From an uncultured Chloroflexia bacterium (GTDB lineage: Bacteria > Chloroflexota > Anaerolineae > Anaerolineales > Anaerolineaceae), in assembly GCA_963704755.1 (NCBI GenBank), contig OY969938.1, positions 1,980,001-2,012,000 of the forward strand: 32,000 nt of DNA, read 5' to 3'. Position 1 is the stretch's first letter. Every line of letters starts with the position of its first letter. Positions 1 through 17,706 of the stretch are shown one piece after another. Under the pieces are notes generated by a model. That model made no database searches, was not told the origin of the DNA, and saw only the letters and a list, made by a program, of their open reading frames with translations. A program made the position numbers and the translations under genes.

Positions 1-306
1 CCGCCGGATATCGGCTTGCAGACGATCCGCATCGTCCAGGAAGCCATGACGAATGTGCGCAAGCACGCCAACGCCAGTATCGTCCACGTCAACCTGGATA
101 TCCAGCCTGAAATGCTATCCATTACCCTGGAAGACGATGGGCGGGGTTTCGACCCCACCGAAATTCCCGAGAAAGCCTGCGGTGGAGTTGGGCTGCAGAT
201 CATGCGCGAGCGGGCCGAGAGTGTGGCCGGCGCATTCCAGGTCCATTCCCAGCCTGGACAGGGCACGCGGGTTTCTTTACAAGTTCCGCTCATCTCCCCG
301 AGGTAA
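1..306 (+). CDS. Sensor histidine kinase, C-terminal HATPase_c fragment (5' end lies outside the window)
   Basis: The frame is open from nt 1. The translation ..IVQEAMTNVRKHANAS..LEDDGRGFD..GGVGLQIMRERAE.. carries the N, G1 and G2 boxes typical of HisKA_3/NarL-partner kinases. The TAA stop is at 304-306, 7 nt before the response-regulator ATG. Confidence 0.8.
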   Translation, partial: PPDIGLQTIRIVQEAMTNVRKHANASIVHVNLDIQPEMLSITLEDDGRGFDPTEIPEKACGGVGLQIMRERAESVAGAFQVHSQPGQGTRVSLQVPLISPR

Positions 307-313
307 ACAAACA

Positions 314-1000
314 ATGGAACCATTACGGGTTTTACTGGCCGACGATCATACCCTCTTCCGGCAGGGCGTCCAGGCATTATTGTCCAACCGGCCCGGCATC
401 ACCGTGGTCGGGAGCGCCGCCAATGGCTGCGAAGCGATCCAGTTAGCGCACGAAACGATGCCCGACGTCATTTTAATGGATATCGAAATGCCGGGCTGCG
501 ACGGCCTGGAAGCCACCCGCCAGATCAAGCGCGACCTGCCCCACATCAAAATTGTGGTTCTGACGGTGGTCGATAATGAAGACACCATTTTCGAAGCGAT
601 CAAGTCCGGCGCGCAGGGCTACCTGCTCAAAGATCTGGAAGCTTACCAGCTCTACGATATGTTGGACGGCTTGCGCCGGGGAGAAGCCCCGCTTTCAGGC
701 GGTGTGGCGGCCAAGATCCTGGACGAGTTCAATCACCCGCTGCGCAGTCCGAGCGAGCAGCACCAGATCAACGAAGAGCTCTCGCCCCGTGAACGCGACG
801 TCCTGGAACTGCTGGTGACCGGTATGACCAACAAAGAGATCGCGGACGCGCTCGTCCTGACCGAAAATACGGTCAAAACTCACCTGGCCAATATTCTTGC
901 CAAGCTGCACCAGCAAAACCGCATCCAGGCCGCGGTCTATGCGGTCCGTAAAGGCCTGGTGGACGAGAAAAAAGGCCGGTCTGGAAGCGGTCCGGTGTAG
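314..1000 (+). CDS. NarL/FixJ-family response regulator (REC domain + LuxR-type HTH)
   Basis: ATG at 314. The REC motifs are LLADDH...ILMDIEMPGCDG...KIVVLT. The C-terminal HTH is LSPRERDVLELLVTGMTNKEIADALVLTENTVKTHLANILAKL. The upstream part of the tracked ORF (53-313) overlaps the kinase in another frame and is not used. Confidence 0.9.
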   Translation: MEPLRVLLADDHTLFRQGVQALLSNRPGITVVGSAANGCEAIQLAHETMPDVILMDIEMPGCDGLEATRQIKRDLPHIKIVVLTVVDNEDTIFEAIKSGAQGYLLKDLEAYQLYDMLDGLRRGEAPLSGGVAAKILDEFNHPLRSPSEQHQINEELSPRERDVLELLVTGMTNKEIADALVLTENTVKTHLANILAKLHQQNRIQAAVYAVRKGLVDEKKGRSGSGPV

Positions 1001-1227
1001 AAAGCCAGGTTTCATAATTTGCAGCGCCGGTCTGGAATATCCTTTAATCCATAACGGATTTTAGGGGGAAGAATCGATCCCCCGAGTGGTTCCTGCCTTA
1101 ACCCCAGGCTCCCCCAGGTGGGGGATGTCTTTGCCGGTATTCCTCCCCCGTTCTTTCTTGGGGGGAACCAAAAAGATCGCTCTCTTTTTCACAAATATCC
1201 GCTGACCAGGTGTTTTCTTCAGGGAAC

Positions 1228-1260
1228 AGTTTGCCTATACTGTTAACGATCAGGCAAACT
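1228..1260. promoter_or_regulatory. Inverted repeat AGTTTGCCT-N15-AGGCAAACT, candidate operator upstream of flavoenzyme 1
   Basis: Perfect 9-bp arms at 1228-1236 and 1252-1260, about 200 nt upstream of the 1457 ATG. A TTTGC..GCAAA-type inverted repeat also precedes the second flavoenzyme gene (7584-7609). Confidence 0.3.
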
Positions 1261-1456
1261 CGGAAAAGCAAAGCTTATCAAAATCAATCAAAAGGGTTTT
1301 TCTACGCGGGGCGATCAACAGAACCCCGATAGATTCGTGCATCAAATTTCCGGTCCCTGGGCCCATACCCGGTCAGGTAAACAGCGGCTGTTCAATTCCG
1401 GCTGCTGCCTCGCCGGGGCAATTTTCCCAGAACCAAAATTTCTCAGGAGAAGATTA

Positions 1457-3061
1457 ATGAGTACACCAGAAGAACCTAAAGGTATCAGCAGGCGAGATTT
1501 TCTTAAGGGTGCAGCAGTGGGCGCCGTTGCGGTCGCGGGCACCGGGATTATGGGCGCTTGCGCTCCCAAAGTCGCCGCCCCCACCCCAGAAGCAAGCACC
1601 CAGGCCCAGGCTTCTTTCGAAATCACCCCCGATCCCATTCCGGCCAGTGAGATCAAAACCACCGTCGATGCCGATGTCGTGATCGTCGGCGCTGGCGACA
1701 GCGGTTTGACGGCCGCATTGGCGGCCAGCGAAGCCGGGGCCAAGGTCGTGGTCATTGAAAAAAGCGAGACTTTTAACGGCCGTGGGTTTGGTAACGGGGC
1801 CATTGGCACCAAGTTTCACACCCAACAGGGCATCCAATTAGACAAGAAGAAAATTGTCAACGAATTGATGCGCTGGGCCGGAAATAAGGCCGAGCAGCCG
1901 CGCATCGAGATGTGGGCCAATCACAGCGGCGAGGTTTACGATCACATCATCGATCTGGCCACCGCCGCCGGCCTGGCAGTGACGCTATTCCCGGCCGCGG
2001 ATGATCCCGCCCTGGCTTATCCTGAATACCCCACCTGCCTGGTGTTCGGCAGCAAAATGGACCAGCTCGAGCTGCTGGGCGTCATCGAAGCCGAGGACAA
2101 AAAGAACGGCGTTGACTTCCATTATTCCATGAGCGCGGAACAGCTCGTTCGCGATTCCAGTGGGCGGGTAACGGCAGTGATCGCCTCCGACAGCACCGGC
2201 GCCTACACTCAATTCAACGCCAAGAACGGTGTCATCCTGAGCACCGGTGACTACGGTCACAACCAGGAAATGTTGGATAAATGGTGCCCCTGGGTCAAAA
2301 ACGTGGACGCCGTGATTTATACCCCCGCAGTCAACACCGGCGACGGGCACAAAATGGGTTTATGGGCCGGCGCCGCGCTGCAAGATTATCCGCATGCGGC
2401 TATGATCCACACCCTGGGTGGCGGGCCTTTGTCGATGAACCCGGGCCTGCGGGTAAATATGCTCGGTGAACGTTACGAGAACGAGGACGTCCCCAACCCC
2501 TACATCTGCAACTCGCGCATGCGCCAGCCCGGTAACGTCGTCTGGGCCGTGTACGACTCGCAATGGGCCGATACCGTGGTCAAACAGGACCCCGGCTTTG
2601 GACGCACCACTGCAGCCGATGGCGTAGCCGACAGCATCGACACCGCCGTGAAAAACGGCACCGTCTTGAAATCCGACACGGTCGAAGGACTGGCTACTGC
2701 GATGGGTGTCCCGGCGGATGCCTTGAAAGCCACCCTGGAGCGCTACACCGAACTGGCCAAGAACCAGGACGATGAAGATTTTGGTAAACGGGCAAACAAC
2801 CTGGGGCCGATCGATACCGCGCCGTTCTATGCCACCAAAGTCGCCGCCGTCCTGCTGGTCACGCTGGGTGGGCTCAAAGTCAATACCAACCTGGAAGTGC
2901 TCGACCCCGACAGCAAAGTCATCCCCGGTCTGTACGCAGCCGGTAACGTGGCCGGTGGTTTCTATGCCAACGATTACCCCGTCCTGGCAGCCGGCTTGAG
3001 CCATGGCCGCTGCATCACCGAAGGGTACCTGGCCGGCCAATCGGCTTCCAAAGCTGCCTGA
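1457..3061 (+). CDS. Tat-exported FAD-dependent oxidoreductase 1 (FAD_binding_2; fumarate reductase / urocanate reductase / KstD-like), probable lipoprotein
   Basis: ATG at 1457 lies 7 nt after AGGAGA (1445-1450). The twin-arginine motif is SRRDFLKG and the lipobox-like end of the signal is IMGAC-APK. The dinucleotide fold is VVIVGAGDSGLTAALAASEAGAKVVVIEK. The C-terminal FAD motif is IPGLYAAGNVAGGFYANDYP. Confidence 0.85.
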   Translation: MSTPEEPKGISRRDFLKGAAVGAVAVAGTGIMGACAPKVAAPTPEASTQAQASFEITPDPIPASEIKTTVDADVVIVGAGDSGLTAALAASEAGAKVVVIEKSETFNGRGFGNGAIGTKFHTQQGIQLDKKKIVNELMRWAGNKAEQPRIEMWANHSGEVYDHIIDLATAAGLAVTLFPAADDPALAYPEYPTCLVFGSKMDQLELLGVIEAEDKKNGVDFHYSMSAEQLVRDSSGRVTAVIASDSTGAYTQFNAKNGVILSTGDYGHNQEMLDKWCPWVKNVDAVIYTPAVNTGDGHKMGLWAGAALQDYPHAAMIHTLGGGPLSMNPGLRVNMLGERYENEDVPNPYICNSRMRQPGNVVWAVYDSQWADTVVKQDPGFGRTTAADGVADSIDTAVKNGTVLKSDTVEGLATAMGVPADALKATLERYTELAKNQDDEDFGKRANNLGPIDTAPFYATKVAAVLLVTLGGLKVNTNLEVLDPDSKVIPGLYAAGNVAGGFYANDYPVLAAGLSHGRCITEGYLAGQSASKAA

Positions 3062-3153
3062 GCTTTTGTTCGACCGGTGCAAGGAAAGGCCACGCCTGCC
3101 TCGCGTGAACTTGCGAGAAAGGTATAAGAGCCAAACGTAAGATTTACAAATCT

Positions 3154-3181
3154 GGGCCATGGCCGAAAGCGGCCATGGCCC
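3154..3181 (+). promoter_or_regulatory. Intercistronic stem-loop (12-bp perfect stem, 4-nt loop) between flavoenzyme 1 and cytochrome 1
   Basis: GGGCCATGGCCG-aaag-CGGCCATGGCCC. No U-tract follows, so it is unlikely to be a full terminator. Its position suggests an attenuator or mRNA processing/stability element. Confidence 0.5.
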
Positions 3182-3232
3182 ACACCATAAAATTCGGTTT
3201 ATATTCCGGTTATCCCTAAAGAATTCCCATCT

Positions 3233-3925
3233 ATGTTTAAACGAAAACCTAAAACCTCCAAAGAAATAAAGCCTGCTGAAGGCAAACCGCAGAGGAAAAA
3301 GCCCAGCCTGCTGCGCATCAGCGTGATCGCCAACATCGCCGTGGTGGTGATCGCCGTGCTGGTGGGCGTGGGCGGGATCGTCATACACGAATCCAACACC
3401 AACCCCAACTTCTGCGCCACCTGCCACATCATGCAGCGTAACGTCAGCTCCTACCAGACCTCGAGCAACCTCGATCACGTCCACGAGGAAGCCGGGGTTC
3501 AGTGCAAGGACTGCCACAACTATCCCCTCTCGGCGGAAATTACCAGCGGGGTCGATTTCCTGATCGGCAATTACACCGTCGGGGACGACGGCGAGCTGGT
3601 CCAGCGTAAGTACGATAACGATATGTGCCTCAAGTGCCACATCAGTTACGACAAAATCGCTCAACAGACCGATTATCTCGAAAAGAACCCCCACGAGAGC
3701 CATTTCAAGGACCTGCCCTGCAACACCTGCCACATCTCGCATGGCACCCAGATCGACTACTGCGCCAGTTGCCACGACAACGGCGGCCAGCGCATGGTTG
3801 GCGGTCCGATCATCCCGCGGGCGGACAATCCCTGGGCCACCGACACCGGCGACGCCAGCGCCGATCCGAATGCGCCCAGCGTTGAGCCCACCACCCCGGC
3901 CTCCGCAAGCGCGCCGCAAGGTTGA
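3233..3925 (+). CDS. Membrane-anchored pentahaem c-type cytochrome, copy 1 (NapC/NirT/NrfH-like quinol dehydrogenase type)
   Basis: There is a Lys/Arg-rich N-terminal tail and one TM helix (ISVIANIAVVVIAVLVGVGGIVI). Five CXXCH motifs follow: CATCH, CKDCH, CLKCH, CNTCH and CASCH. The first, FCATCHIM, lies just after the TM as in NapC/NrfH/CymA. The C-terminal tail is Pro/Ala/Thr-rich. Confidence 0.9.
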   Translation: MFKRKPKTSKEIKPAEGKPQRKKPSLLRISVIANIAVVVIAVLVGVGGIVIHESNTNPNFCATCHIMQRNVSSYQTSSNLDHVHEEAGVQCKDCHNYPLSAEITSGVDFLIGNYTVGDDGELVQRKYDNDMCLKCHISYDKIAQQTDYLEKNPHESHFKDLPCNTCHISHGTQIDYCASCHDNGGQRMVGGPIIPRADNPWATDTGDASADPNAPSVEPTTPASASAPQG

Positions 3926-3932
3926 AATTCTT

Positions 3933-3987
3933 CCCGAAAAAAATAAAATTGCCGGAGCATAGCTCCGGCAATTTTATTTTTTTCGGG
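3933..3987. terminator. Bidirectional intrinsic terminator (perfect 26-nt arms)
   Basis: CCCGAAAAAAATAAAATTGCCGGAGC-ata-GCTCCGGCAATTTTATTTTTTTCGGG. A GC core stem is flanked by an A-tract 5' and a T-tract 3' on both strands. It starts 8 nt after the cytochrome stop. Confidence 0.8.
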
Positions 3988-4008
3988 ATCCTTTAAAGCG
4001 GCCGGCAT

Positions 4009-4862
4009 GGCAGAACCCTGGCTATTAAGCCAGCTTCTGCCAATAAGGAGACCCACGCAGGTGGGTCTTTGTGTCCTTGTAGGTGCAGTTTCAACTGCTG
4101 CGGCCGGGTCAATACCCCGTTTTCTACCTCAGCGATTCGCATGCCAAACGCTCTCCCGGCTTTGAAAGCCGGGCTACGAGGACCGTCACGGCGTTTTGGA
4201 TGAGTAGCTCGGGTTTCCAACCCGAGAAAACGCCGGCCCGGCAGAATTTCGTCTATAAAGCCAGCTTCTGCCCAAAAGGAGACCCACGCAGGTGGGTCTT
4301 TGTGTCCTTGTAGGTGCAGTTTCAACTGCTACGGCCGGGTCAATGCCTTGTTTTCTACCTCGGCGATACGCAAGCCAAACACTCTCCCGGCTTTGAAAGC
4401 CGGGCTACGAAAACCTTTTCGGCGCACCGGGTGGGTAGCTCGGGTTTCTAACCCGAGAAAGCGCCGGCCAAACGTTCTCCCGGCTTTGAAAGCCGGGCTA
4501 CAAAGGAGGGCATAGGGTTTCGGATGAGTAGCTCGGGTTTCCAACCCGAGAAAGCGCCGGCCCGGCAGAATTTCGTCTATAAGGCCAGCTTTTGCCAAAA
4601 AGGAGACCCACGCAGGTGGGTCTTTGTGTCCTTGTAGGTGCAGTTTCAACTGCTACGTCTGGGTCAATGCCCCGTTTTCTACCTCAGCGATTCGCATACT
4701 AAACGCTCTCCCGGCTTCGAAAGCCGGGCTACGAGGACCGTCACGGCGTTTTGGATGAGTAGCTCGGGTTTCTAACCCGAGAAAGCGCCGGCCCGGCAGA
4801 ATTTCGTCTATTAGGCCAGGTTCTGCCAAAAAGGAGACCCACGCAGGTGGGTCTTTGTGTCC
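4009..4862 (+). repeat. Repeat array A: tandem mosaic multi-hairpin units (231, 324 and 231 bp)
   Basis: The GACCCAC-GCAG-GTGGGTC hairpin recurs at 4050, 4281, 4605 and 4836. Each unit also carries these hairpins: GGCAGAA..CTGGCT..AGCCAG..TTCTGCC, GTAGGTGCAG-TTTCAA-CTGCTAC, CCCGGCTT-tga-AAGCCGGG and CTCGGGTT-tcya-AACCCGAG. The middle unit has an internal duplication of the last two modules. Confidence 0.9.
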
Positions 4863-4912
4863 TTTCCCCATTCGATGAATTATAATGAGTACCGATCCGA
4901 AAACTGTTTTGG

Positions 4913-6685
4913 TTGTTTGGATTGGGCGGCCTGGCCGCCCAATTCAAACAACCAAAAATTATTGTCCTGCTCATAGATCCCGTGCAAAATTCCAGCGACC
5001 CCATAGAAGAAGAAACCGCCCAGCCAATCGAGAATGATTTGGGGGATTACGCGCGCCAGTTGGAGGCCTCGGCCAGGTTCAATTCGGCCATGCGCCAGGC
5101 CAAATCGCGCCGGCACGCCCTCGAGATCTTGCTCAACCTGACCCTGGAGGCTTTTTCCGCGGATATCGCCGGTGTGTATGACCTGAAGGGCTCAAAACTG
5201 ATTTACAACTCCGGGCTGGGGCTGACCATCGACCCGCCGGATGAGCTCAGCGCGGATTCGAGCAACGTGCTCGGCCGGAGCATCAATTCCGACTGCGTCC
5301 TCTTTTTCGACACAGACGAATCCTCGGAGGAGGACTGCGATTTCTGCGGCTTCCTGCTGCGCCAAAAAATGAAATCGCTGCTGGTCATTCCCCTGCGGAC
5401 GACTGATGACGCGATCGGCGTATGGTTCATCGCCCTGCGCCACCCGATTAGCCTGACGGCCAACGTCGAGCAGTTGTTGAGCACATTTTCCGAAGCGGCC
5501 GGCAACACCCTCCAGCGCTTCATGGTCATGGAGGAACTCGAGCATAACGTCGCCATCCGCGAAAAAGAGCTGGGCATCCTCTACAAAATCATGACCATTG
5601 CCGGCGAGACCGGCGAGACCCAAACTCTGCTCGACCAATCGCTGGATACGACCCTGCAAGGCGTGGGCTGTTCGACCGGCGTGATCCACCTGTACGACCC
5701 GTACGAGAAACGCTTGAAGATTATCATCCGCAAAGAATTTCCGGATGAATTATTAACTTTTTTGGAACTCTCTTCCCAGACAGATCGGCTATGGATGCAG
5801 GTATTCAACAGCCAGAAGCGAGTCCAGTACGCCAACATTCCCATCCGTTCATTCCCGGAGAACCCATCTTCCACCCCCCTGGCAACCGGCTACCTGGGCT
5901 TTCCGATCCGGGCCAAGAATATCAGCATCGGCGTGCTCAGCCTGTTCGGCGACCCGGAGCACCTGCTGGACCCGACCATCGTCCAGATTGTCAGCTCGGT
6001 CACCGACCAGCTCGGGCTGGCTTACGAAAATGTGCAGTTGCGCAAACAGGCCGAAAACGCAGTCGTCCTTCAGGAACGGCAGCGGTTGGCCCGCAATCTT
6101 CACGACTCGGTTTCGCAATCGCTGTACGCGCTGGTCATCTCAGCCGACGTCAGCAAAAAGCTGCTGCGCCTCAAAGACTACCCGCACCTGCGCGAACAAT
6201 TGAGCGACATCGGCAAAGTCGCCATCATGGCGCTCAAAGAAATGCGCCTGATGCTTTTCGAGCTGCGTCCCTCCTTCCTCGGCGACGAAGGACTGATCGG
6301 GGCCCTGGAACTGCGCCTGAACACGGTCGAGCGACGGGCCGGGATCGACGCTAACCTGATTTTTGACGAACCTTTCAAGCTGCCCCCCTTCATCGAGCAG
6401 GAAGTCTACCACATCGCCATCGAAGGGTTGAACAATTCCTTGAAACACGCTGAAGCGACCAACGTGGTGATCACCATGAAAGTAAAGCCCCGTTCCTTCT
6501 GGATGGAAATCCAGGACAACGGAATCGGTTTCGATTATTCCAATGTCAGCGCCACCGGCGGGATCGGGTTGAGCAGCATGAAAGAACGCACCCTGGGCTT
6601 GAGCGGAAAGGTCGATTTCATCTCGAACCCGGGCAGCGGAACCATCGTCCATCTGGAAATACCGATCGATCCCGAACGCCAATAG
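4913..6685 (+). CDS. Cytoplasmic sensor histidine kinase with tandem GAF-like domains + HisKA_3 + HATPase_c
   Basis: The H-box is RQRLARNLHDSVSQSLYAL. The N, G1 and G2 boxes are EGLNNSLKHAEAT, QDNGIGFD and GGIGLSSMKERT. I see no hydrophobic TM segment. The start is uncertain: the TTG at 4913 is the longest option and the first ATG is at 5090. Confidence 0.85.
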   Translation: MFGLGGLAAQFKQPKIIVLLIDPVQNSSDPIEEETAQPIENDLGDYARQLEASARFNSAMRQAKSRRHALEILLNLTLEAFSADIAGVYDLKGSKLIYNSGLGLTIDPPDELSADSSNVLGRSINSDCVLFFDTDESSEEDCDFCGFLLRQKMKSLLVIPLRTTDDAIGVWFIALRHPISLTANVEQLLSTFSEAAGNTLQRFMVMEELEHNVAIREKELGILYKIMTIAGETGETQTLLDQSLDTTLQGVGCSTGVIHLYDPYEKRLKIIIRKEFPDELLTFLELSSQTDRLWMQVFNSQKRVQYANIPIRSFPENPSSTPLATGYLGFPIRAKNISIGVLSLFGDPEHLLDPTIVQIVSSVTDQLGLAYENVQLRKQAENAVVLQERQRLARNLHDSVSQSLYALVISADVSKKLLRLKDYPHLREQLSDIGKVAIMALKEMRLMLFELRPSFLGDEGLIGALELRLNTVERRAGIDANLIFDEPFKLPPFIEQEVYHIAIEGLNNSLKHAEATNVVITMKVKPRSFWMEIQDNGIGFDYSNVSATGGIGLSSMKERTLGLSGKVDFISNPGSGTIVHLEIPIDPERQ

Positions 6686-6698
6686 AGAAGGACAAAGC

Positions 6699-7379
6699 AT
6701 GGGCCGAAATATCATTCGAGTACTGGTCGTTGACGACCATCCCATCGTACGGCGGGGGTTATGCGCCGAAATCAACCTGGATCCGGAAATGCAGGTGGTC
6801 GCCGAAGCCAAAGACGGTAAAGAGGCGGTCGAAATGGCCAGGATCCTCCAGCCGGATGTGATCTTGATGGACGCTGTGATGCCGCGTAAAAACGGCATTG
6901 AAGCCACCACCGAGATCATCCAGGAAAACCCCCTCGCGCGGGTATTGATCCTGACCAGCTTTACCGAGGACGAAAAAATCTACGCCGCCATCAAAGCCGG
7001 GGCGCTGGGTTACATTCTTAAGGATAAAGATCCCGAGGAAGTTCTCCAGGCCATCCGCGATACCTACAACGGCAAGCCCTACCTCAATCCCAACATCGCC
7101 CGGCGCTTGTTTCGCCAGCTGCACGACCAGTATTCCCTGTCTCCCGAAACAATATTGACGCCGCGCGAATTGGACGTCCTGCGCCTGGTCGCCATGGGCA
7201 CCCCCAACAAAGAAATCGCCCAAAAGATCAACGTGCAGGAAGCTACCGTGCGGGCGCATGTCAGCAATATTCTCAGCAAATTAAACCTGGCCAACCGCTC
7301 GCAACTGGTGCTGTACGCCGTCAAAAAGGGCTTGATTGAACCCAACTCGGATGAAAATATCGATCCCACTATGCTTTAG
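6699..7379 (+). CDS. NarL/FixJ-family response regulator (REC + LuxR-type HTH)
   Basis: ATG at 6699 follows GAGAAGGA. The REC motifs are VLVVDDHP..ILMDAVMPRKNG..VLILTS. The HTH is LTPRELDVLRLVAMGTPNKEIAQKINVQEATVRAHVSNILSKL. Confidence 0.9.
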   Translation: MGRNIIRVLVVDDHPIVRRGLCAEINLDPEMQVVAEAKDGKEAVEMARILQPDVILMDAVMPRKNGIEATTEIIQENPLARVLILTSFTEDEKIYAAIKAGALGYILKDKDPEEVLQAIRDTYNGKPYLNPNIARRLFRQLHDQYSLSPETILTPRELDVLRLVAMGTPNKEIAQKINVQEATVRAHVSNILSKLNLANRSQLVLYAVKKGLIEPNSDENIDPTML

Positions 7380-7583
7380 CGCGCTTCCGAGCCAGACCAG
7401 CCCTCTTTCGCGACCGTCTCTTTCCCCCTCTAAACGTTTGTTTAATTTATTTTAATCATCCGCTTATTCTGGATTAATCTTTTACCCAGATAAAGACTCG
7501 CTTTTCCCCCATAGGATTGTGTGCATTATTTCACTAATATAGTAAGCGTGCCTCATTTTTAATGTTCCTCAGGCAGAGCAAGA

Positions 7584-7609
7584 AAATTTGCACCTATTTT
7601 AGCAAATAT
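7584..7609. promoter_or_regulatory. Inverted repeat AAATTTGC-N10-GCAAATAT, candidate operator/promoter element upstream of flavoenzyme 2
   Basis: The arms match at 7 of 8 positions, in the AT-rich leader about 35-55 nt upstream of the 7642 ATG. It shares the TTTGC/GCAAA core with the 1228-1260 repeat. Confidence 0.3.
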
Positions 7610-7641
7610 TTCGCAGCACATCCGTTTGGAGAGGAAAAAGC

Positions 7642-9288
7642 ATGAGTTTTGAAGAGAAAGAACCCAATATTGTCTCACGTAGAACTTTCCTGAAGAAGAC
7701 CGCTATGATCGGCGCCGGCCTGGCAGCGGCCACCACGTTGAATGCGTGCGCCCCGAAACAGGCCGGGGTTGCTTCGTCAAAGCAGCCCAAGTGGGATAAA
7801 GAAGTGGATGTTCTGGTCCTGGGATCAGGCACGGCTTCGATGGCCGCTATCGCCGCAAAAGACGCCGGGGCCGAAAAAGTCACCATCATCGAAAAAGGCC
7901 CGGCCTTTGGGGGTACTTCGGCGCTATCGGGTGGCGGAATGTGGATCCCCAACAATTATTTGATGCAGGCCCAGGGGATCGAGGACAACAAGGCCGATGC
8001 CCTTAAATACTTGCAGAACGTCACCGGCGGCCAATCGAATGACGAGCTCATGAATGCTTACCTGGACAACGCTCCCAAGCTGTTGGAGTGGCTGCGCGAC
8101 AAATTCGGCTTCGAGTTTGCCCTGGGCGGTTCAGCTTACAATGATTATTACCAGGTACCGGGATACCGGCCGTTTGGCCGCTCGATTTATTTCGCTAAAG
8201 ACGGCGCTTCCGTCGGCGGCGCCGGTGGCTGGCAGGTCGTCCGCGCGACCTGTGACAAATTGGGGATCGAGATCCTGCTCAACACGACCGGCAAGCAACT
8301 GTATACCAATGATGACGGAGAAGTCATTGGTGTGCTGGCCACCGGCCAGGACGGGACTGACATCGCCATCCACGCGACCAAGGGTGTCATCATCGGTACC
8401 GGCGGTTTTGACTACAACAAAGACATGACCATGGCGTTCCTGCGCGGGCCGGTTATGGCCAGCGTGGCCGTGCAGACCAACACCGGCGACGGCCACCTGA
8501 TGGGTATGGCCATCGGCGCCGATCTGCGTAACATGAACGAGAGCTGGGGCCTGCCCTTCTTCCCCCTCGACCTGGACAAGATGCAGGGTGAGGCCGACTG
8601 GCAGGTGTATCGTGGAAAACCGGGCGCGGTTGTGGTCAACAAATACGGCGAGCGCATCGGTAACGAAGCCTGCGCTTACGACCTCTTCCAGCGCTCCTTC
8701 TACTACTGGGATTCGGGTAAATTCGAATGGCGCAACATCCCGGCTTACTTCATCTGTGATTCGACCTTCCCGGCCAATTACCCCATGCCGGGCGCCAATT
8801 ACAAGATGGGCGTGATCGCGGATTGGATGAAACCCTACGATACCCTGGAAGACCTGGCCAAGGATATGGGCATCGATGTCGACGGGCTGAACGCTACCCT
8901 GGCCGTCTTCAACGAGAACGCCAAGAATGGCGTGGATCCCATCTGGCACCGCGGCGAATACGACTTCGACAAGGGTACCGCCGGCGACCAGAGCGGCAAC
9001 CGCACCGACCTGAAGAACAACTGCCTGGCCCCGATCGAAACCGGGCCTTTCTATGCTGCCCAGTACGTACCGGGCACCTGCGGCACCAACGGCGGGCTGC
9101 GCATCAACGGCAGCGCCCAGGTATTGGATGTTTGGGGCAAACCGATCCCGCGCTTATACGCCGTCGGCAACACCTCCTCCTCTGTGATGGGCGCGGCCTA
9201 TCCGGGTGGCGGCTCGACCGTAGGGGCAGGAAGCGTCATGGGCATGCTCGCCGGCCAGCATGCAGCCAGCCTGGAAGCGCTCGACTAA
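7642..9288 (+). CDS. Tat-exported FAD-dependent oxidoreductase 2 (FAD_binding_2, KstD-like), probable lipoprotein
   Basis: ATG at 7642 follows GGAGAGGAAAAAG. The Tat motif is SRRTFLKK and the lipobox-like end of the signal is TLNAC-APK. The dinucleotide fold is VLVLGSGTASMAAIAAKDAGAEKVTIIEKGPAFGGTSALSGGGMW. The C-terminal motif IPRLYAVGNTSSSVMGAAYPGGGSTVG is typical of 3-ketosteroid-dehydrogenase-like flavoenzymes. Confidence 0.9.
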   Translation: MSFEEKEPNIVSRRTFLKKTAMIGAGLAAATTLNACAPKQAGVASSKQPKWDKEVDVLVLGSGTASMAAIAAKDAGAEKVTIIEKGPAFGGTSALSGGGMWIPNNYLMQAQGIEDNKADALKYLQNVTGGQSNDELMNAYLDNAPKLLEWLRDKFGFEFALGGSAYNDYYQVPGYRPFGRSIYFAKDGASVGGAGGWQVVRATCDKLGIEILLNTTGKQLYTNDDGEVIGVLATGQDGTDIAIHATKGVIIGTGGFDYNKDMTMAFLRGPVMASVAVQTNTGDGHLMGMAIGADLRNMNESWGLPFFPLDLDKMQGEADWQVYRGKPGAVVVNKYGERIGNEACAYDLFQRSFYYWDSGKFEWRNIPAYFICDSTFPANYPMPGANYKMGVIADWMKPYDTLEDLAKDMGIDVDGLNATLAVFNENAKNGVDPIWHRGEYDFDKGTAGDQSGNRTDLKNNCLAPIETGPFYAAQYVPGTCGTNGGLRINGSAQVLDVWGKPIPRLYAVGNTSSSVMGAAYPGGGSTVGAGSVMGMLAGQHAASLEALD

Positions 9289-9302
9289 GAAGATGATGCA
9301 TG

Positions 9303-9332
9303 GAGGGGAAAGTGTTAACGCACTTTCCCCTC
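9303..9332 (+). promoter_or_regulatory. Intercistronic stem-loop (12-bp stem) directly after flavoenzyme 2
   Basis: GAGGGGAAAGTG-ttaacg-CACTTTCCCCTC starts 15 nt after the stop codon, with no U-tract. It occupies the same position as the 3154-3181 hairpin but has an unrelated sequence. Confidence 0.5.
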
Positions 9333-9532
9333 ATAAAGAACGGTCTTCTGGGGCTTTCCGACTGAAGTCATACCGTAACCGCTCAGGCATATCGTAAGAA
9401 GTTCCCGGATTTGCGAGGTTTGTAGTTGCCGGCCTCGCCAATCCCTCAAATCCGGAAGGCTTACCCATCCGTTCGAGCGGGTACATTTTACAGTTCTTGG
9501 GCGTCAAAAATTCTTCATCGAGGAAAAGCTGA

Positions 9533-10237
9533 GTGAAACTCTTTAGAATACAACTATTTAAAAGAAAAGAAAAATCACCTGACTCAGATTCAGGTGAACA
9601 AAAGAGGAAAAAGCCCAGCCTGCTGCGCATCAGCGTGATCGCCAACATCGCCGTGGTGGTGATCGCCGTGCTGGTGGGCGTGGGCGGGATCGTCATACAC
9701 GAATCCAACACCAACCCCAACTTCTGCGCCACCTGCCACATCATGCAGCGCAACGTCAGCTCCTACCAGACCTCGAGCAACCTCGATCACGTTCACGAGG
9801 AAGCCGGGGTTCAGTGCAAGGACTGCCACAACTATCCCCTCTCGGCCGAAATTACCAGCGGGGTCGATTTCCTGATCGGCAATTACACCGTTGGCGATGA
9901 CGGCGAGCTGGTCCAGCGCAAGTACGATAACGATATGTGCCTCAAGTGCCACATCAGTTACGATCACGTCGCCCAGCAGACCGATTACCTGGAAAAGAAC
10001 CCCCACGAGAGCCATTTTAAGGACCTGCCCTGCAATACCTGCCATATCTCGCATGGCACCCAGATCGACTACTGCGCCAGTTGCCACGACAACGGCGGCC
10101 AGCGCATGGTCGGCGGAGCGATCATCCCGCGGGCGGACAATCCCTGGGCCACCGACACCGGCGACACCAGCGCCGATCCGAATGCGCCCAGCGTCGAACC
10201 CACCACCCCAGCGTCCGCAAGCGCGCCGCAAGGTTGA
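9533..10237 (+). CDS. Membrane-anchored pentahaem c-type cytochrome, copy 2
   Basis: It has the same TM helix and five CXXCH motifs as copy 1. The ATG used by copies 1 and 3 is CTA here (..QLFKRKEK..). The best start is therefore the GTG at 9533, 7-12 nt after AGGAAAA, and this remains uncertain. Confidence 0.85.
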   Translation: MKLFRIQLFKRKEKSPDSDSGEQKRKKPSLLRISVIANIAVVVIAVLVGVGGIVIHESNTNPNFCATCHIMQRNVSSYQTSSNLDHVHEEAGVQCKDCHNYPLSAEITSGVDFLIGNYTVGDDGELVQRKYDNDMCLKCHISYDHVAQQTDYLEKNPHESHFKDLPCNTCHISHGTQIDYCASCHDNGGQRMVGGAIIPRADNPWATDTGDTSADPNAPSVEPTTPASASAPQG

Positions 10238-10244
10238 AATTCTT

Positions 10245-10299
10245 CCCGAAAAAAATAAAATTGCCGGAGCATAGCTCCGGCAATTTTATTTTTTTCGGG
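10245..10299. terminator. Bidirectional intrinsic terminator, identical to 3933-3987
   Basis: Same 26-nt-arm palindrome with an ata loop, starting 8 nt after the cytochrome stop. Confidence 0.8.
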
Positions 10300-10320
10300 A
10301 TCCTTTAAAGCGGCCGGCCT

Positions 10321-11230
10321 GGCAGAACCCTGGCGATTAAGCCAGCTTCTGCCAATAAGGAGACCCACGCAGGTGGGTCTTTGTGTCCTTGTAGGTGCAT
10401 TTTCAACTGCTACGGCCGGGTCAATGCCTTGTTTTCTACCTCGGCGATACGCAAGCCAAACGCTACAAAGGAGGAACAGGGGTTTTTTATTGTTTTGTGT
10501 GCTTCGCACACAAAACAATAAAAAACCCCCTATCTTAGCGGCCAGCATGGCAGAACCCTGGCTATAAAGCCAGCTTCTGCCAAAAAGGAGACCCACGCAG
10601 GTGGGTCTTTGTGTCCTTGTAGGTGCAGCTTTAGCTGCTACGGCCGGGTCAATGCCCCGTTTTCTACCTCGGCGATACGCAAGCCAAACGCTCTCCCGGC
10701 TTCGAAAGCCGGGCTACGAGGGCCGCTGCGGCGTTTTGGATGGGTAGCTCGGGTTTCTAACCCGAGAAAGCGGCCGACCTGGCAGAATCCTGGCTATAAG
10801 GCCAGCTTCTGCCAAAAAGGAGACCCACGCAGGTGGGTCTTTGTGTCCTTGTAGGTGCAGTTTCAACTGCTACGGCCGGGTCAATGCCCCGTTTTCTACC
10901 TCGGCGATACGCAAGCCAAACGCTCTCCCGGCTTCGAAAGCCGGGCTACGAGGGCCGCTGCGGCGTTTTGGATGGGTAGCTCGGGTTTCTAACCCGAGAA
11001 AGCGGCCGACCTGGCAGAATCCTGGCTACAAGGCCAGCTTCTGCCAAAAAGGAGACCCTCGCAGGCGGGTCTTTGTGCCCTTGTAGGTGCAGCTTTAGCT
11101 GCTACGGCCGGGTCAATGCCCCGTTTTCTACCTCGACGATACGCAAGCCAAACGCTACAAAGGAGGAACAGGGGTTTTTTATTGTTTTGTGTGCTTCGCA
11201 CACAAAACAATAAAAAACCCCCTATCTTAG
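10321..11230 (+). repeat. Repeat array B: mosaic multi-hairpin units (230, 230 and 234 bp) punctuated by two copies of a long AT-rich palindrome
   Basis: The GACCCAC hairpin recurs at 10360, 10590 and 10820, and as the variant GACCCTC..GCGGGTC at 11054. The palindrome GGGGTTTTTTATTGTTTTGTGTGC-ttc-GCACACAAAACAATAAAAAACCCC occurs at 10479-10529 and 11171-11221. Confidence 0.9.
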
Positions 11231-11256: not shown

Positions 11257-14046
11257 TTAAAGCAGGCTTAATTCCCTGGCGCGCTCGATCACCATCCGGC
11301 GGGAATGGCCGCCCATTTTGCGGTAGATGCTCTTCAAATGGGCCTTGGTGGTATTGACCGAGATCATCAGCACCGCGGCAATCTCCTTGGTCGGTTTTCC
11401 GGCAGCTAACAGACCCAACACCTCGATTTCCCGTTCACTTAAGGGCTCGGCTACCGGCGCGACAAAGGAAGTCTTGATCCGGCATTTTGTGGAAGAGGGG
11501 CTAACTTTTACGGAAAATGGATCGAAAGCCGCGATCAATTTACGCAGATAATCCGCCTGCCCGGCCTTATCTTTACCGGCGCCGCCATCCAGGTATATCG
11601 ACAAATACGCTTCCAGTAGATCCCTGACCGGCTCACCTTCCAGGGTGAAGATGCGGATATACCCCTCCGGTGCGGCGAGCTGCACCGCCCGCGCGATCGT
11701 TTCAATGGCCAGGTCCAGATCACCTTTGGCTTGCTGCGCCTGTGCCAGCAAGATCAACCCTTCCAGCCGGCGTTCGTTCGAATCGGTGTCGCCAATTTCG
11801 ACCAACATTTCCAGCAGCGCCTGCTCCGCTTGTGAGAACTTGTGCTGGGCCAGGTAAATCCGGCCCAGGGCTGCCTGCCGGGTTGCCTTGGCGATCCGCG
11901 TTAAGGTGAACGACGCCAGTTCTTCCGTCAGCAGCACGTCCGCCTCGGCCGCCCTGCCATCCGCCAGCCAGTAACCCACCAGCACGTCGGTCACCTCGGA
12001 GGTATAGATCCATTCGAAGGAGTGCAGGATTTTCTTGCGGGCCTGCTGCAAGAAAAGGTTACCCCGCTCACGGTCGCCCACGTACAAATGGAATTTCGCC
12101 AGGCGCAGGTTCAGGATCACCCCATAATGCCAGGGTAAAGTACTGATGTCGATTGGATCGATTTTCTGGAGCCATTCTTTCAAAGGAGCCAGGTCGGCCG
12201 GAAGCTCGTTCCGCTCCAGGGCGATGCCCATCAAGCCGCATTGGGCAAATAAACAGGCGCTTTCATCCAGAGTCTGGCTGACCGTCAAATCCAACGCGTG
12301 GCGGTATTCTTCCGCGGCATCCTTTAGCCGGCCCTGGTACTTGCGGATCCTGGCCAGGCCGCAGGAAGTATGGACCGATTGGAGCACGTGCTTATTCCGC
12401 CAGGCGAAATTGCGGCCCTCTTCCAACGCCCCGGCGGCGGCTTGGAGATCGATAAACAATTCGTACGCCTCGGCCAGGTTGAAGTTCATAAACCCGTAGA
12501 AATACTTGTCCGCTTTGGGCGTGTCCCGCTGCAAATCGATGATTTCGCAAATACAGCGCTCGTAATCCTGGCAAAGGCAATTCATTACCGCCCGCAAGGC
12601 AGACACTTCCCATTTCAGGTAGGGCTCATCCGGGACAAACCGGTTTTCCTGTTTGGCTTTTTGGAGGGCCTGTTCGACGATTTGCAGCTTGGGCTCGATT
12701 TGTTCGAACCGGCCCAGCTCGAAGCTGGCCAGTACGTAATGGATGCCCAGGTTGGGATGTTTGGCGATCAAATCGTCCGAGAAATAGGCCACCCAATCCA
12801 CCAGGCTGGTCAGGTCAGCCTCGACAATCGCCTGAAAGGCACAGGCATCCGCGATTTCGGCGGCCCTTTCCAGGTCGTTGGCGGCCACCGCATGGATCAC
12901 AGCTTTGTCGGGGTAACCATTTTCGCTTAGCCAGATGCAGGCTTTGCGGTGCAGCTCCCGGGTAATGCCCGGGGAGGTCCGTTCCAGTTGCACCCGCAGG
13001 ACATCGGCGAACAGAGAGTGGTAGCGATACCAGTTCAGGCGGTTATCGATCGGCTGGATGAACAGGTTGGCCCGCACGATCCGGTCCAACAGCTCGCTGC
13101 TGTCCGTGCGGCCGAGCAGGTCATTGCATAGGGGCGCGGATAGCTCGTTCAAAATCGAAGTCTTGAGCAGGAATTCCTTGATTTCGCTGCTCTGCTGGTT
13201 CAAAACTTCTTCGGCCAGGTAATCGAAAGCCTTGGCAAAGCCGGCCGATTGGTTTTCACGGTCGTAGCGGAACCCGCCCTGGCTTTGGCTCGATAGGGCC
13301 GCCAGTTGCAACCCGGCGATCCAACCCTCGGTCGCTTCGACCAGCCTGGCGACCTGGTCATGCTGCATATCCAGGGCCATGACGTCCTTGATAAAGGCTT
13401 CGGCCTCGTCCATCGTAAAAGACAGGTCGGCGGAGGTTACTTCCAGCAGTTGGTGCTTGGTACGCAGCCGGGAGAGTGGAATGGGCGGCACCACCCGGCT
13501 GGCAATGATCAGGTGCAGGTTGTTGGGCTGGTGACTGATCAGGTAATCCAGGCTCTGGTGGATTTTCACATCGGTGACAGAGTGATAATCATCCAGAATG
13601 AGGCAAAGCGGTTCCGGCATTTGGGCGATTTCGTTGAACAAAGGGTTCAGCCCAATCAGGTCCAACTCGCCGCCATTTTGAAACAGGTCCAGGGGATTGA
13701 AGCGCAGCCGCGGATAGACCCTTTTAATGGCCGCAGCGACGTACGACCAGAACCGCAGCGGGGTATTGTCAAAGAGATCCAGGGTTACCCAGGCAGCCCG
13801 CCAGAAGGATGGCAGAGCTTCCGAAAGCCATTCGACCAGCAGGGTGGTCTTGCCATAACCGGCCGGGGCGATGACCAGCGTCACCCCATTTTCGATCTCT
13901 CCTTGCAAGCGGGAAGTCAGGCGTCCCCTTTGGACGATTTGATAATTTAACAGCGGAATATCCAGCTTGGTGGCCAGCAGGTCGCCGAGTTGGTGAGAAA
14001 CAGCCAATTTATTTTGTTTTTCAATCGTTGTAGGAAAATTGCTCAA
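11257..14046 (-). CDS. MalT/LuxR-type STAND transcriptional regulator (AAA/NB-ARC-like ATPase + helical/TPR-like sensor + LuxR HTH)
   Basis: Walker A is APAGYGKTTLL and Walker B is CLILDDYH. There is a long helical repeat region. The C-terminal HTH is LSEREIEVLGLLAAGKPTKEIAAVLMISVNTTKAHLKSIYRKMG. No ATG lies near the 5' end, so the TTG at 14046 is taken as the start and the exact start is uncertain. Confidence 0.85.
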   Translation of the reverse strand: MSNFPTTIEKQNKLAVSHQLGDLLATKLDIPLLNYQIVQRGRLTSRLQGEIENGVTLVIAPAGYGKTTLLVEWLSEALPSFWRAAWVTLDLFDNTPLRFWSYVAAAIKRVYPRLRFNPLDLFQNGGELDLIGLNPLFNEIAQMPEPLCLILDDYHSVTDVKIHQSLDYLISHQPNNLHLIIASRVVPPIPLSRLRTKHQLLEVTSADLSFTMDEAEAFIKDVMALDMQHDQVARLVEATEGWIAGLQLAALSSQSQGGFRYDRENQSAGFAKAFDYLAEEVLNQQSSEIKEFLLKTSILNELSAPLCNDLLGRTDSSELLDRIVRANLFIQPIDNRLNWYRYHSLFADVLRVQLERTSPGITRELHRKACIWLSENGYPDKAVIHAVAANDLERAAEIADACAFQAIVEADLTSLVDWVAYFSDDLIAKHPNLGIHYVLASFELGRFEQIEPKLQIVEQALQKAKQENRFVPDEPYLKWEVSALRAVMNCLCQDYERCICEIIDLQRDTPKADKYFYGFMNFNLAEAYELFIDLQAAAGALEEGRNFAWRNKHVLQSVHTSCGLARIRKYQGRLKDAAEEYRHALDLTVSQTLDESACLFAQCGLMGIALERNELPADLAPLKEWLQKIDPIDISTLPWHYGVILNLRLAKFHLYVGDRERGNLFLQQARKKILHSFEWIYTSEVTDVLVGYWLADGRAAEADVLLTEELASFTLTRIAKATRQAALGRIYLAQHKFSQAEQALLEMLVEIGDTDSNERRLEGLILLAQAQQAKGDLDLAIETIARAVQLAAPEGYIRIFTLEGEPVRDLLEAYLSIYLDGGAGKDKAGQADYLRKLIAAFDPFSVKVSPSSTKCRIKTSFVAPVAEPLSEREIEVLGLLAAGKPTKEIAAVLMISVNTTKAHLKSIYRKMGGHSRRMVIERARELSLL

Positions 14047-14651
14047 GTTACAGATCTCAAAGAAATAATGGCTTCATTGGTCGGATACAGTTTTAAAGAA
14101 AAAGGAGGCCTTTTTCGGAAAGCAAGTGAATGCTCCCCCTCAAAAGCGTCTCCTCTGATAAGCGCAAAACCTTTGTAACCACGCGATCCCGTTGGGGTAT
14201 CCCAACTTAAATTTGATGAGCGGTTCCAAAAGTCCACAATATCTAACGGGTTAATTGTACAACACATCGATAACCCTCGTAACCACCCATAAATAACCCT
14301 ATCAGGGTGATTACTGTCCCTATTTAGCTGGCTATACTTTAGCCTAGATTAAAAACAGGTTAGTAATTGCCAAAAGAATAACGAGATCAGTACCCAGTCT
14401 GGGTTGAAAACGCCGGCAAACGCGTGACCCTTTGATAAATCCTGGGGGATGGGTATTGGGGAGGTGGGGTTGCGCAAAACGCAACCGCACCTCCCTTTAC
14501 GCCTTTCCCATCGAAAGCGGCAGCCAAGCTGGCCTTTTACTGGTTACGTGTTGAAACACCGTTTATCACTCCCTTGAAAGTAGTTCCACCCCGGCCGAAA
14601 GCGCCGGCATCCTGAGCGCCGCCATGGCAGCCAAGAAATAGAAAAGGCAAA

Positions 14652-15335
14652 ATGTTCAAACGAAAACCCAAAACCCCCGAAGAAGTAAAGCCTGCTGAAG
14701 ACGAGCCCAAGAAGAAAAAGCCCAGCCTGCTGCGCATCAGCGTGATCGCCAACATCGCCGTGGTGGTGATCGCCGTGCTGGTGGGCGTGGGCGGGATCGT
14801 CATACACGAATCCAACACCAACCCCAACTTCTGCGCCACCTGCCACATCATGCAGCGTAACGTCAGCTCCTACCAGACCTCGAGCAACCTCGATCACGTC
14901 CACGAGGAAGCCGGGGTTCAGTGCAAGGACTGCCACAACTATCCCCTCTCGGCCGAAATTACCAGCGGGGTCGATTTCCTGATCGGCAATTACACCGTTG
15001 GCGATGACGGCGAGCTGGTCCAGCGTAAGTACGATAACGATATGTGCCTCAAGTGCCACATCAGTTACGATAAAATCGCTCAACAGACCGATTATCTCGA
15101 AAAGAACCCCCACGAGAGCCATTTCAAGGACCTGCCCTGCAATACCTGCCACATCTCGCATGGCACCCAGATCGACTACTGCGCCAGTTGCCACGACAAC
15201 GGCGGCCAGCGCATGGTTGGCGGACCGATCATTCCGCGGGCGGACAATCCCTGGGCCACCGATACCGGCGCCGATTCGAATGCGCCCAGCGTTGAGCCCA
15301 CCACCCCAGCCTCCGCAAGCGCGCCGCAAGGGTAA
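14652..15335 (+). CDS. Membrane-anchored pentahaem c-type cytochrome, copy 3 (orphan: no adjacent flavoenzyme)
   Basis: ATG at 14652. The protein is identical to copy 1 from KKPSLL through ATDTG, with five CXXCH motifs. Only the N-terminal cytoplasmic tail and the C-terminal tail differ. Confidence 0.9.
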   Translation: MFKRKPKTPEEVKPAEDEPKKKKPSLLRISVIANIAVVVIAVLVGVGGIVIHESNTNPNFCATCHIMQRNVSSYQTSSNLDHVHEEAGVQCKDCHNYPLSAEITSGVDFLIGNYTVGDDGELVQRKYDNDMCLKCHISYDKIAQQTDYLEKNPHESHFKDLPCNTCHISHGTQIDYCASCHDNGGQRMVGGPIIPRADNPWATDTGADSNAPSVEPTTPASASAPQG

Positions 15336-15346
15336 AGTTAGACCAT

Positions 15347-15399
15347 CCCGAAAATAAAAAATTGCCGGAGTTGCACTCCGGCAATTTTTTATTTTCGGG
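15347..15399. terminator. Bidirectional intrinsic terminator, variant of 3933-3987 with compensatory changes
   Basis: CCCGAAAATAAAAAATTGCCGGAGT-tgc-ACTCCGGCAATTTTTTATTTTCGGG. The arms are still perfectly complementary although both the stem top and the A/T-tract differ from copies 1 and 2. Confidence 0.8.
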
Positions 15400-15429
15400 G
15401 TTACTGCTCAACCAGGTTCAAAAGATATG

Positions 15430-15690: not shown

Positions 15691-15692
15691 GG

Positions 15693-17703: not shown

Positions 17704-17706
17704 TAA

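Follow-up and report, generated by a model that had tools for sequence, protein, structure and literature searches.

The closest described counterpart of the genes considered here is the Cgr1/Cgr2 pair of Eggerthella lenta (PMC5953540), in which a membrane multihaem cytochrome (Cytochrom_c3_2, NapC/NirT/NrfH-like) is encoded beside an FAD_binding_2 enzyme exported through twin-arginine translocation (Tat), with a LuxR-type regulator nearby and a proposed electron path from quinol through the cytochrome and the flavoenzyme to an alpha,beta-unsaturated carbonyl. We analyzed a stretch of 32,000 nucleotides (nt), referred to below as the window, from an uncultured Chloroflexia bacterium (GenBank assembly GCA_963704755.1, contig OY969938.1, positions 1,980,001 to 2,012,000 of the forward strand), where two tandem cassettes each encode a sensor kinase, a response regulator, a flavoenzyme (Flav1 or Flav2) and a cytochrome with five haem motifs. 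The original prediction for this DNA, made from the sequence alone, had drawn the comparison with Cgr1/Cgr2, and we found it apt: the cassettes probably encode regulator-controlled modules of this kind, in which electrons would pass from menaquinol through the cytochrome to a flavoenzyme reductase. The likeness is not complete, as the gene order is reversed (the flavoenzyme comes first in the window), the window cassettes stand with GAF kinase/NarL-type pairs or MalT-type regulators, their host belongs to the Chloroflexota (Anaerolineae), and their flavoenzymes are probable lipoproteins.

Other known systems resemble the cassettes in part. Fcc3 (FccA) of Shewanella is also supplied with electrons by a membrane NapC/NirT-type quinol dehydrogenase, CymA, whereas the corresponding haem domain in the window would be a separate membrane protein fused to a quinol-oxidizing anchor, with no soluble shuttle. 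The TorS/TorR-TorCAD and NrfH-NrfA systems likewise co-encode a dedicated membrane cytochrome of the NapC/NirT family with an exported terminal reductase; Tor adds a pentahaem cytochrome (TorC) and a substrate-sensing two-component system, and NrfH shares the CxxCHxM first haem of the window cytochrome. Unlike either, the window cytochrome has a flavoenzyme as partner rather than a molybdoenzyme or a haem nitrite reductase, is accompanied by a cytoplasmic sensor, scores far below the TorC and NrfH cut-offs, and appears to have a fifth haem of different origin. The dehydrogenases KstD, AcmB and cyclohexanone dehydrogenase (CDH) share a catalytic tetrad with Flav2, and CDH also has a twin-arginine N terminus, but Flav2, a Tat protein that bears a lipobox, comes from an anaerobe, has a dedicated cytochrome and likely works in the direction of reduction.

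Gut Eggerthellaceae, Erysipelotrichaceae and Burkholderiaceae possess many paralogous FAD_binding_2 reductases with signal peptides, each beside a two-component system or helix-turn-helix regulator, and each of these secreted enzymes has its own electron acceptor as inducer and a narrow specificity (bioRxiv 10.1101/2022.12.26.521950). The design principle, a secreted FAD_binding_2 reductase with a NapC/NrfH-like cytochrome and a regulator, is already published for gut bacteria. That survey was of human gut genomes, does not mention Chloroflexota, and describes neither pairing with a replicated cytochrome nor a linkage to ccm and tat genes; for Anaerolineae, we found no description of the design in the literature, of which our coverage was incomplete. 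Sediments, soils and anaerobic digesters harbor Anaerolineae in abundance, but the group is poorly cultured and mostly described as fermenters. The features that we consider noteworthy at this locus are the apparent NrfH-Fcc3 hybrid cytochrome, the probable Tat-lipoprotein flavoenzymes, a KstD-type site seemingly wired to a cytochrome, the ccm/tat linkage in relatives, and the concerted evolution of the cytochrome copies.

Both cassettes have the same order of kinase, regulator, leader, flavoenzyme, hairpin, cytochrome and terminator, as had been predicted, with every gene at or near its expected place and all of the cassette genes (1-10237) on the + strand, with domains assigned by Pfam (Table 1). 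The flavoenzymes are indeed highly diverged from each other (27% identity), and the cytochromes are almost identical (93-96% amino acid identity), each with one hydrophobic N-terminal segment and five CXXCH motifs. In the scheme that we infer for cofactor loading, export, docking, electron flow and induction, the flavoenzyme and cytochrome of each cassette would make up a redox module located on the outward side of the cytoplasmic membrane. Held by its one transmembrane (TM) helix, the cytochrome would take electrons from menaquinol at the membrane-adjacent CxxCHxM haem 1, from which four bis-His haems, the last three of them Fcc3-like, would relay them outward. The flavoenzyme would fold with its flavin adenine dinucleotide (FAD) in the cytoplasm, leave by Tat, become lipid-anchored at its lipobox Cys, dock on the cytochrome and reduce an organic C=C bond. 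Flav2 would act on an enone (C=C next to a carbonyl) in a reversal of KstD-type chemistry, and Flav1 on an unsaturated compound other than fumarate with an activated C=C bond. A cytoplasmic GAF kinase with its NarL-type regulator, or a MalT-type regulator, would sense the substrate or a derivative of it and turn on expression of flavoenzyme and cytochrome from a promoter that belongs to these two genes.

The cytochrome combines parts of two known families. Pfam placed NapC/NirT (PF03264, 34 bits) on residues 30-95 and Cytochrom_c3_2 (PF14537, 56 bits) on residues 124-182, both above cut-off. The best NCBIfam model was Cgr1 of E. lenta (NF051471), at 60.2 bits against a cut-off of 340, and neither NrfH (TIGR03153, 50 bits against 134) nor NapC/NirT (TIGR02161, 26 bits against 311) reached its cut-off; the NrfH, NapC and TorC models cover only the N-terminal 60-75 residues, and five haem motifs do not make the tetrahaem architecture of the NapC/NirT/NrfH type. 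Residues 119-182, which hold the last three haems, align with the haem domain of Shewanella Fcc3 in solved structures (E 1e-6). All of the pentahaem homologues taken from genome contigs (32/32) have a CxxCHxM first haem motif and a single TM helix, and 26/32 have the haem spacing 30/41/31/14 (the three window copies and 23/29 others). In a 67-sequence alignment, the additional histidines H84, H154, H157 and H170 show no variation and D81 is near-invariant, a pattern that fits four bis-His haems plus one special haem at a quinol site. Published work connects an NrfH-type CxxCHxM haem with the oxidation of quinol. We read the cytochrome as the fusion of an NrfH-type quinol-oxidizing anchor with an Fcc3-like haem wire, which amounts to a "split", membrane-bound Fcc3 haem domain. 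An exact look-up of cytochromes 1 and 3 and of P0274 found no record.

The flavoenzymes appear to be exported and anchored. Flav1 starts MSTPEEPKGISRRDFLKG, the start of the 534-residue form in public protein sets (P0121; the listed open reading frame (ORF) begins earlier, at 1337), and Flav2 starts MSFEEKEPNIVSRRTFLKK, with a 548-residue form in public protein sets (P0001). The predicted S-R-R-x-F-L-K twin-arginine motifs are present as SRRDFLK in Flav1, which also has a Pfam TAT_signal match, and as SRRTFLK in Flav2. For each enzyme, 104/120 homologues have the twin-arginine motif, and the motif occurs together with an L-x-[ASG]-C lipobox in 104/120 homologues of Flav2 and 86/120 of Flav1; the lipobox Cys itself is kept in 109/113 Flav2 orthologues and 96/116 Flav1 homologues. 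Because this conserved lipobox stands straight after the Tat hydrophobic region (IMGAC in Flav1, LNAC in Flav2), both enzymes are probably Tat lipoproteins. Chloroflexota are commonly proposed to have a cell envelope without an outer membrane, which such an anchor would suit. With TIGR01813, the two flavoenzymes scored 176 and 186 bits against a cut-off of 285, and neither has a haem motif. The Flav1 and Flav2 alignments contain no conserved set of four cysteines for a [4Fe-4S] cluster, and besides the lipobox Cys there are two mostly conserved cysteines in Flav2 and one in Flav1. Cgr2, in contrast, needs one or more such clusters, although its [4Fe-4S] cluster is itself not predictable from sequence (PMC5953540).

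The original prediction held that the substrates could not be inferred from sequence, which was too pessimistic for Flav2. This enzyme aligned end to end with AcmB (7P18), KstD1 (4C3X) and the CDH of Alicycliphilus denitrificans (8AM3/6/8; PMC10966990), with E values of 1e-54 to 5e-68. Counted through the alignment, KstD1 residues Y119, Y318, Y487 and G491 correspond to Flav2 Y169, Y346, Y520 and G524, and this tetrad is invariant in 113/113 full-length orthologues. Since the whole KstD tetrad is kept, Flav2 is predicted to desaturate or saturate the C-C bond in the alpha,beta position to a carbonyl, introducing a C=C bond there or reducing one. Its scores against the KstD equivalogs, 338 bits for NF009478 (cut-off 789) and 320 for NF005882 (cut-off 788), did not reach the thresholds. 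For Flav1, the closest solved relatives are Fcc3 and urocanate reductase (UrdA), and FccA and UrdA had been named as analogues in the original prediction; comparison of the active sites spoke against either activity. In the alignment, Fcc3 Arg402, His504 and Arg545, residues for fumarate binding, are replaced by Asn, Val and Tyr in Flav1, Fcc3 His365 may correspond to the conserved Flav1 H313 at an offset of two residues, and the position of the UrdA catalytic Arg holds Pro/Asn. These active-site residues rule out Flav1 as a fumarate or urocanate reductase. Invariant in the Flav1 family are only the equivalents of KstD Y487/G491 (Y507 and G513), together with a P-H-x-P-M motif.

The electron path that had been proposed, from quinol through a NapC/NrfH-like cytochrome to an exported flavoenzyme, agrees in its topology with these results (CxxCHxM after the TM helix, Cgr1 as best match, Fcc3-like haems), while its reductive direction had been assumed. 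On established values, with potentials of about -10 to +70 mV for enoate/enone couples against -74 mV for menaquinone, reduction would be favored, as it is by the NrfH-type haem site and the precedents of Cgr1/Cgr2 and the gut reductases. We also considered that electrons run the other way, with the exported flavoenzymes, Flav2 above all, oxidizing a cyclic ketone or similar compound and passing electrons through the cytochrome to the quinone pool. In Flav2 no residue of the KstD/CDH Tyr-Tyr-Tyr-Gly tetrad is missing, only dehydrogenases are among its best NCBIfam and PDB matches, the Alicycliphilus CDH aligns with it from the twin-arginine N terminus on, and NapC/NirT-type cytochromes can be bidirectional according to the literature in which ImoA is discussed. 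However, the known hosts of KstD and CDH are aerobes or denitrifiers with high-potential acceptors, and turning a ketone into an enone would be uphill with the menaquinone pool (-74 mV) of Anaerolineae. The CxxCHxM haem is also tied to quinol oxidation, and the analogues in gut bacteria are reductases. We regard reverse flow as unlikely.

We also examined loci fetched from genomes or contigs of relatives (labelled L0xx below). The closest genomes were Anaerolineaceae and "Chloroflexia" metagenome-assembled genomes (MAGs). The cytochrome and an FAD_binding_2 gene, accompanied by a kinase/regulator pair or a MalT-like regulator, recur as a pair across many Anaerolineae loci, and the system is widespread among Anaerolineaceae; the pair also turned up in MAGs with the labels Syntrophomonas and Chitinophagales. 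A PAS/GAF-HisKA_3 kinase followed by the regulator, Flav2 and the cytochrome, in this order, is shared with 62-74% identity by another four genomes (L040, L043, L045, L046), and a fifth (L047) keeps the Flav2-cytochrome pair at 52% identity. In eight relatives, the homologous cytochrome stands divergently beside a System I ccm cluster (L010, L013-L017, L021, L023), with ccmE, ccmF, ccmH, a thioredoxin-like gene and an ABC ATPase on one side and tatA-like/tatC genes on the other. For L017, Pfam confirmed CcmE, CcmF, CcmH and the thioredoxin-like protein, with TatC on the opposite side and the TatA-like gene recognized by motif only. Two further loci (L006 and L008) have a Tat-lipoprotein flavoenzyme of 608-646 residues within the ccm-cytochrome-tat locus. 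The original prediction had named the lack of any cytochrome c maturation system as grounds for doubt, and these ccm genes answer that for the lineage, the source genome itself being a separate question.

Several of the fetched loci showed features of their own. A Coriobacteriia MAG (GCA_013336165.1; L041/L042) encodes a Flav2 orthologue (64% identical) whose neighbors are a 484-residue LuxR-type regulator and, in place of the cytochrome, a CCG/Fer4_8 (HdrD-like) protein, which hints at movement of the gene between phyla and at an alternative module for electron input. In the cassette of the closest relative (L040; OY969772.1, 3019690-3037333), the kinase and cytochrome genes are both split by frameshifts, which could be long-read assembly errors or real decay, and a second, divergent multihaem cytochrome lies just downstream on the opposite strand. 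A Logan contig from the window's population (ERR11571143; L044) carries a further FAD_binding_2 gene, 35% identical to Flav1 and followed by a 65%-identical cytochrome paralogue, with a Zn alcohol dehydrogenase and a TetR regulator near.

The original prediction described each flavoenzyme as having a private copy of an almost identical cytochrome. The near-identity held, but the window contains three copies, one of them without a flavoenzyme, and their likeness reflects homogenization within the genome rather than pairing. The third cytochrome lies outside the span of the original prediction, beside a divergent MalT/LuxR regulator; blastx of its flanks (14047-14651 and 15336-15692) for a flavoenzyme remnant gave chance matches only (E > 0.7). 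DNA identity among the three begins abruptly at codon 22, where the TM helix starts (3296, 9608 and 14715), and is 96-98% within the gene from there on. The N-terminal tails and the upstream DNA of the copies are unrelated. Between copies 1 and 2, DNA identity of 100% continues through the terminator (that of cytochrome 1 is identical to 10250-10304) into the downstream repeats, and copy 3 in that region is at about 72-76%. The codon differences between copies 1 and 2 are 21 synonymous and four non-synonymous; being mostly synonymous, they indicate functional copies that were recently homogenized and are not merely under strong constraint at the protein level. The source genome has at least five cytochrome paralogues, of which the three in the window form one 90% cluster and two others are 65% and 61% identical, and only the three neighboring copies are homogenized. 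In the closest relative (OY969772), the cytochrome of the Flav2 cassette shares 79-89% identity with the remaining copies of its own genome and only 63% with window cytochrome 2, although the flanking Flav2 and regulator 2 orthologues are at 74%. From these identities within and between genomes, the cytochrome copies track the genome and not the cassette. A similar case is known from E. lenta, where Cgr1 has a paralogue with 92% identity (PMC5953540). Docking of all flavoenzymes on one conserved surface is a plausible reason for the homogenization, and the copies provide a clear small example of concerted evolution in one subunit shared by diverged enzymes.

The homogenized block runs into a repeat family. 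Hairpin-rich repeats of about 231 nt follow each cytochrome terminator (3995-4860, 10307-11230 and 15496-15690), and four further units lie at 22173-22976, unconnected with any cytochrome. The unit (core GGAGACCCACGCAGGTGGGTCTTTGTG) has 13 occurrences in four tandem arrays, with 0 expected by chance, and was absent from all fetched loci of relatives. The units at 22173-22976 and this absence rule out the repeats as part of the cassette. They look like a genome-specific interspersed element resembling repetitive extragenic palindromes (REP) or bacterial interspersed mosaic elements (BIME), and they may have served as the source of homology for recombination. Near-perfect A/T-rich palindromes with arms of about 18-25 bp are found at the array ends (10490-10527, about 11170-11215 and about 15430-15485), one of which folded at -23 kcal/mol (z -7).

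A second alternative treats the cytochrome as a general quinol oxidase, serving several partners or, for instance, extracellular electron transfer, and explains its place next to flavoenzymes in the window only by recombination that copied a cytochrome-terminator-repeat block. It would account for cytochrome 3, for a homogenized block that ends in interspersed repeats found elsewhere too, and for several relatives whose cytochromes lie by ccm/tat genes with no flavoenzyme nearby. We consider it quite improbable, since the flavoenzyme-cytochrome pair recurs without these repeats in many independent loci at 50-74% identity, and the C-terminal haems resemble the FAD-feeding Fcc3 domain. That the genes are inactive or artefactual, as assembly duplications or decaying pseudogenes, is hardly credible: the frameshifts in the closest relative's cassette and the difficulty of assembling repeats are set against intact ORFs throughout the window, the 21 versus four codon differences, unique flanks and an own N-terminal tail for each cytochrome copy, and an independent short-read contig (L001) with the same Flav2-cytochrome junction.

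Returning to menaquinol-fed reductase modules as the explanation we favor, some observations weigh against it. Cytochrome 3 has no flavoenzyme partner. All characterized near relatives of Flav2 (KstD, AcmB, cyclohexanone dehydrogenase and ChcC1/2) are dehydrogenases, and neither flavoenzyme reached any NCBIfam cut-off, which leaves their substrates unassigned. The ccm/tat linkage is known from the loci of relatives and not from the source genome's own. An AlphaFold model of the cytochrome had low confidence (mean predicted local distance difference test score 65.7, predicted template modelling score 0.42), and a Foldseek search with it against the PDB returned only Fcc3 at non-significant values (E >= 0.3); owing to the low confidence and the non-significant fold matches, the model adds nothing independent. 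Finally, the hairpins in the flavoenzyme-cytochrome gaps could break co-transcription.

We tentatively entertain a broader possibility, to which we give less credence than to the reductase modules themselves. Anaerolineaceae may run a modular, menaquinol-dependent respiration on enone/enoate compounds in which the pentahaem "hub" cytochrome (NrfH anchor plus Fcc3-like wire) is a principal client of Ccm and Tat, an idea suggested by the ccm-cytochrome-(flavoenzyme)-tatA/tatC loci in relatives. Gene conversion would keep the copies near-identical, and every substrate-specific Tat-lipoprotein flavoenzyme that the genome newly acquires would thereby find one and the same surface to dock on. If the flavoenzymes are respiratory reductases, Anaerolineae would gain energy from organic acceptors such as cyclic enones or phenylpropenoid-like compounds, and would change what becomes of these in soils and digesters. 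Flav2 is a tractable target for finding a substrate by induction because it belongs to a large, tightly conserved orthologue group with its own sensor, and a cytochrome-coupled KstD-type site could interest biocatalysis as an enone reductase or desaturase.

Both cassettes encode a kinase, as had been proposed, but kinase 1 is present only as a 101-residue fragment whose sensor domain lies outside the window. The fragment is 52% identical to the C terminus of a GAF-GAF-HisKA_3 kinase in L003 that stands beside a regulator-1 homologue. Kinase 1 probably shares the soluble type of kinase 2. Kinase 2 and both response regulators lack any hydrophobic segment. The soluble GAF kinase had been singled out as distinctive; it is soluble, but a GAF kinase is the norm for this cassette in relatives, and this conserved partnership rules it out as an unusual feature. 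Cytosolic sensors next to secreted reductases have also been described before (bioRxiv 10.1101/2022.12.26.521950). A hairpin with a perfect 24-bp stem (4907-4957, -40 kcal/mol) lies just past the last repeat unit and overlaps the nominal TTG of kinase 2, which makes its true start uncertain. Homologues of regulator 1 (60-67% identical) adjoin cytochrome cassettes in L003, L028, L032 and L034, orthologues of regulator 2 are in the equivalent position in L040 (74%) and L043 (62%), and MalT-like regulators flank flavoenzyme and cytochrome pairs in L002, L004, L005 and L011.

Predicted RNA structures held up on folding: the bidirectional terminators have perfect 27-bp stems between an A run and a T run and fold at about -43 kcal/mol (z about -10), and the stem-loops of the flavoenzyme-cytochrome gaps are strong and lack a T tract. 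Rfam gave no match over the whole window at gathering thresholds and chance-level matches only for both leaders in E-value mode, so that neither a riboswitch nor a known leader RNA is supported by sequence for either leader. A scan of the window for tRNA genes found none, and a scan for consensus promoters found six sites against 7.9 expected, which is not above chance.

Table 1. Cassette genes, cytochrome copies and associated elements, with positions counted from the first nucleotide of the window
Feature	Position	Strand	Basis or folding
Kinase 1, C-terminal HATPase_c piece, cut by the window edge	1-306	+	Pfam, translation
Response regulator 1, REC + GerE/LuxR helix-turn-helix, NarL type	314-1000	+	Pfam
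Leader 1, 456 nt, small hairpin at 1110-1125	1001-1456	+	
Flav1, FAD_binding_2, Fcc3/UrdA-like fold, predicted Tat signal ISRRDFLKG, lipobox IMGAC	1457-3061	+	
Hairpin in Flav1/cytochrome 1 gap, 13-bp G+C-rich stem, no T tract	3153-3182	+	-29.5 kcal/mol, z -7.2
Cytochrome 1, single TM helix at the N terminus, five CXXCH motifs, motif 1 CxxCHxM	3233-3925	+	
Bidirectional intrinsic terminator, perfect 27-bp stem, A run + T run	3932-3988	.	-43.6 kcal/mol, z -10.4
Hairpin-rich tandem repeats, about 231 nt, four units, REP/BIME-like	3995-4860	+	
Kinase 2, GAF-GAF-HisKA_3-HATPase_c, no TM helix, start codon uncertain	4913-6685	+	Pfam
Response regulator 2, REC + GerE	6699-7379	+	Pfam
Leader 2, 262 nt, blocks conserved with the orthologous L040 leader	7380-7641	+	
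Flav2, FAD_binding_2, KstD/cyclohexanone-dehydrogenase type, VSRRTFLKK, lipobox LNAC, Y169/Y346/Y520/G524	7642-9288	+	
Hairpin in Flav2/cytochrome 2 gap, 13-bp stem, no T tract	9303-9332	+	-23.4 kcal/mol, z -5.1
Cytochrome 2, 93% amino acid identity to cytochrome 1	9533-10237	+	
Bidirectional terminator, identical to that of cytochrome 1	10244-10300	.	
Tandem repeats, about 231 nt, four units, with long palindromes	10307-11230	+	
MalT-like STAND/TPR + LuxR (GerE) regulator, 929 residues, divergent from cytochrome 3	11257-14046	-	
Cytochrome 3, 96% amino acid identity to cytochrome 1, no adjacent flavoenzyme	14652-15335	+	
Bidirectional terminator after cytochrome 3, a copy diverged to 76% identity	15345-15401	.	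-41.3 kcal/mol
One more repeat unit of about 231 nt	15496-15690	+	

Elsewhere in the window, an intergenic region contains short tandem repeats, with about ten copies of the 7-nt unit GTTAGCA (17667-17706) and two copies of a 21-nt unit (18046-18114). On the - strand, a 619-residue ORF (28631-30490) has a hydrophobic N terminus and, by eye, PAS-/GAF-like regions and HD-GYP-type motifs (HDIGK and HHEWWNGSGYP).

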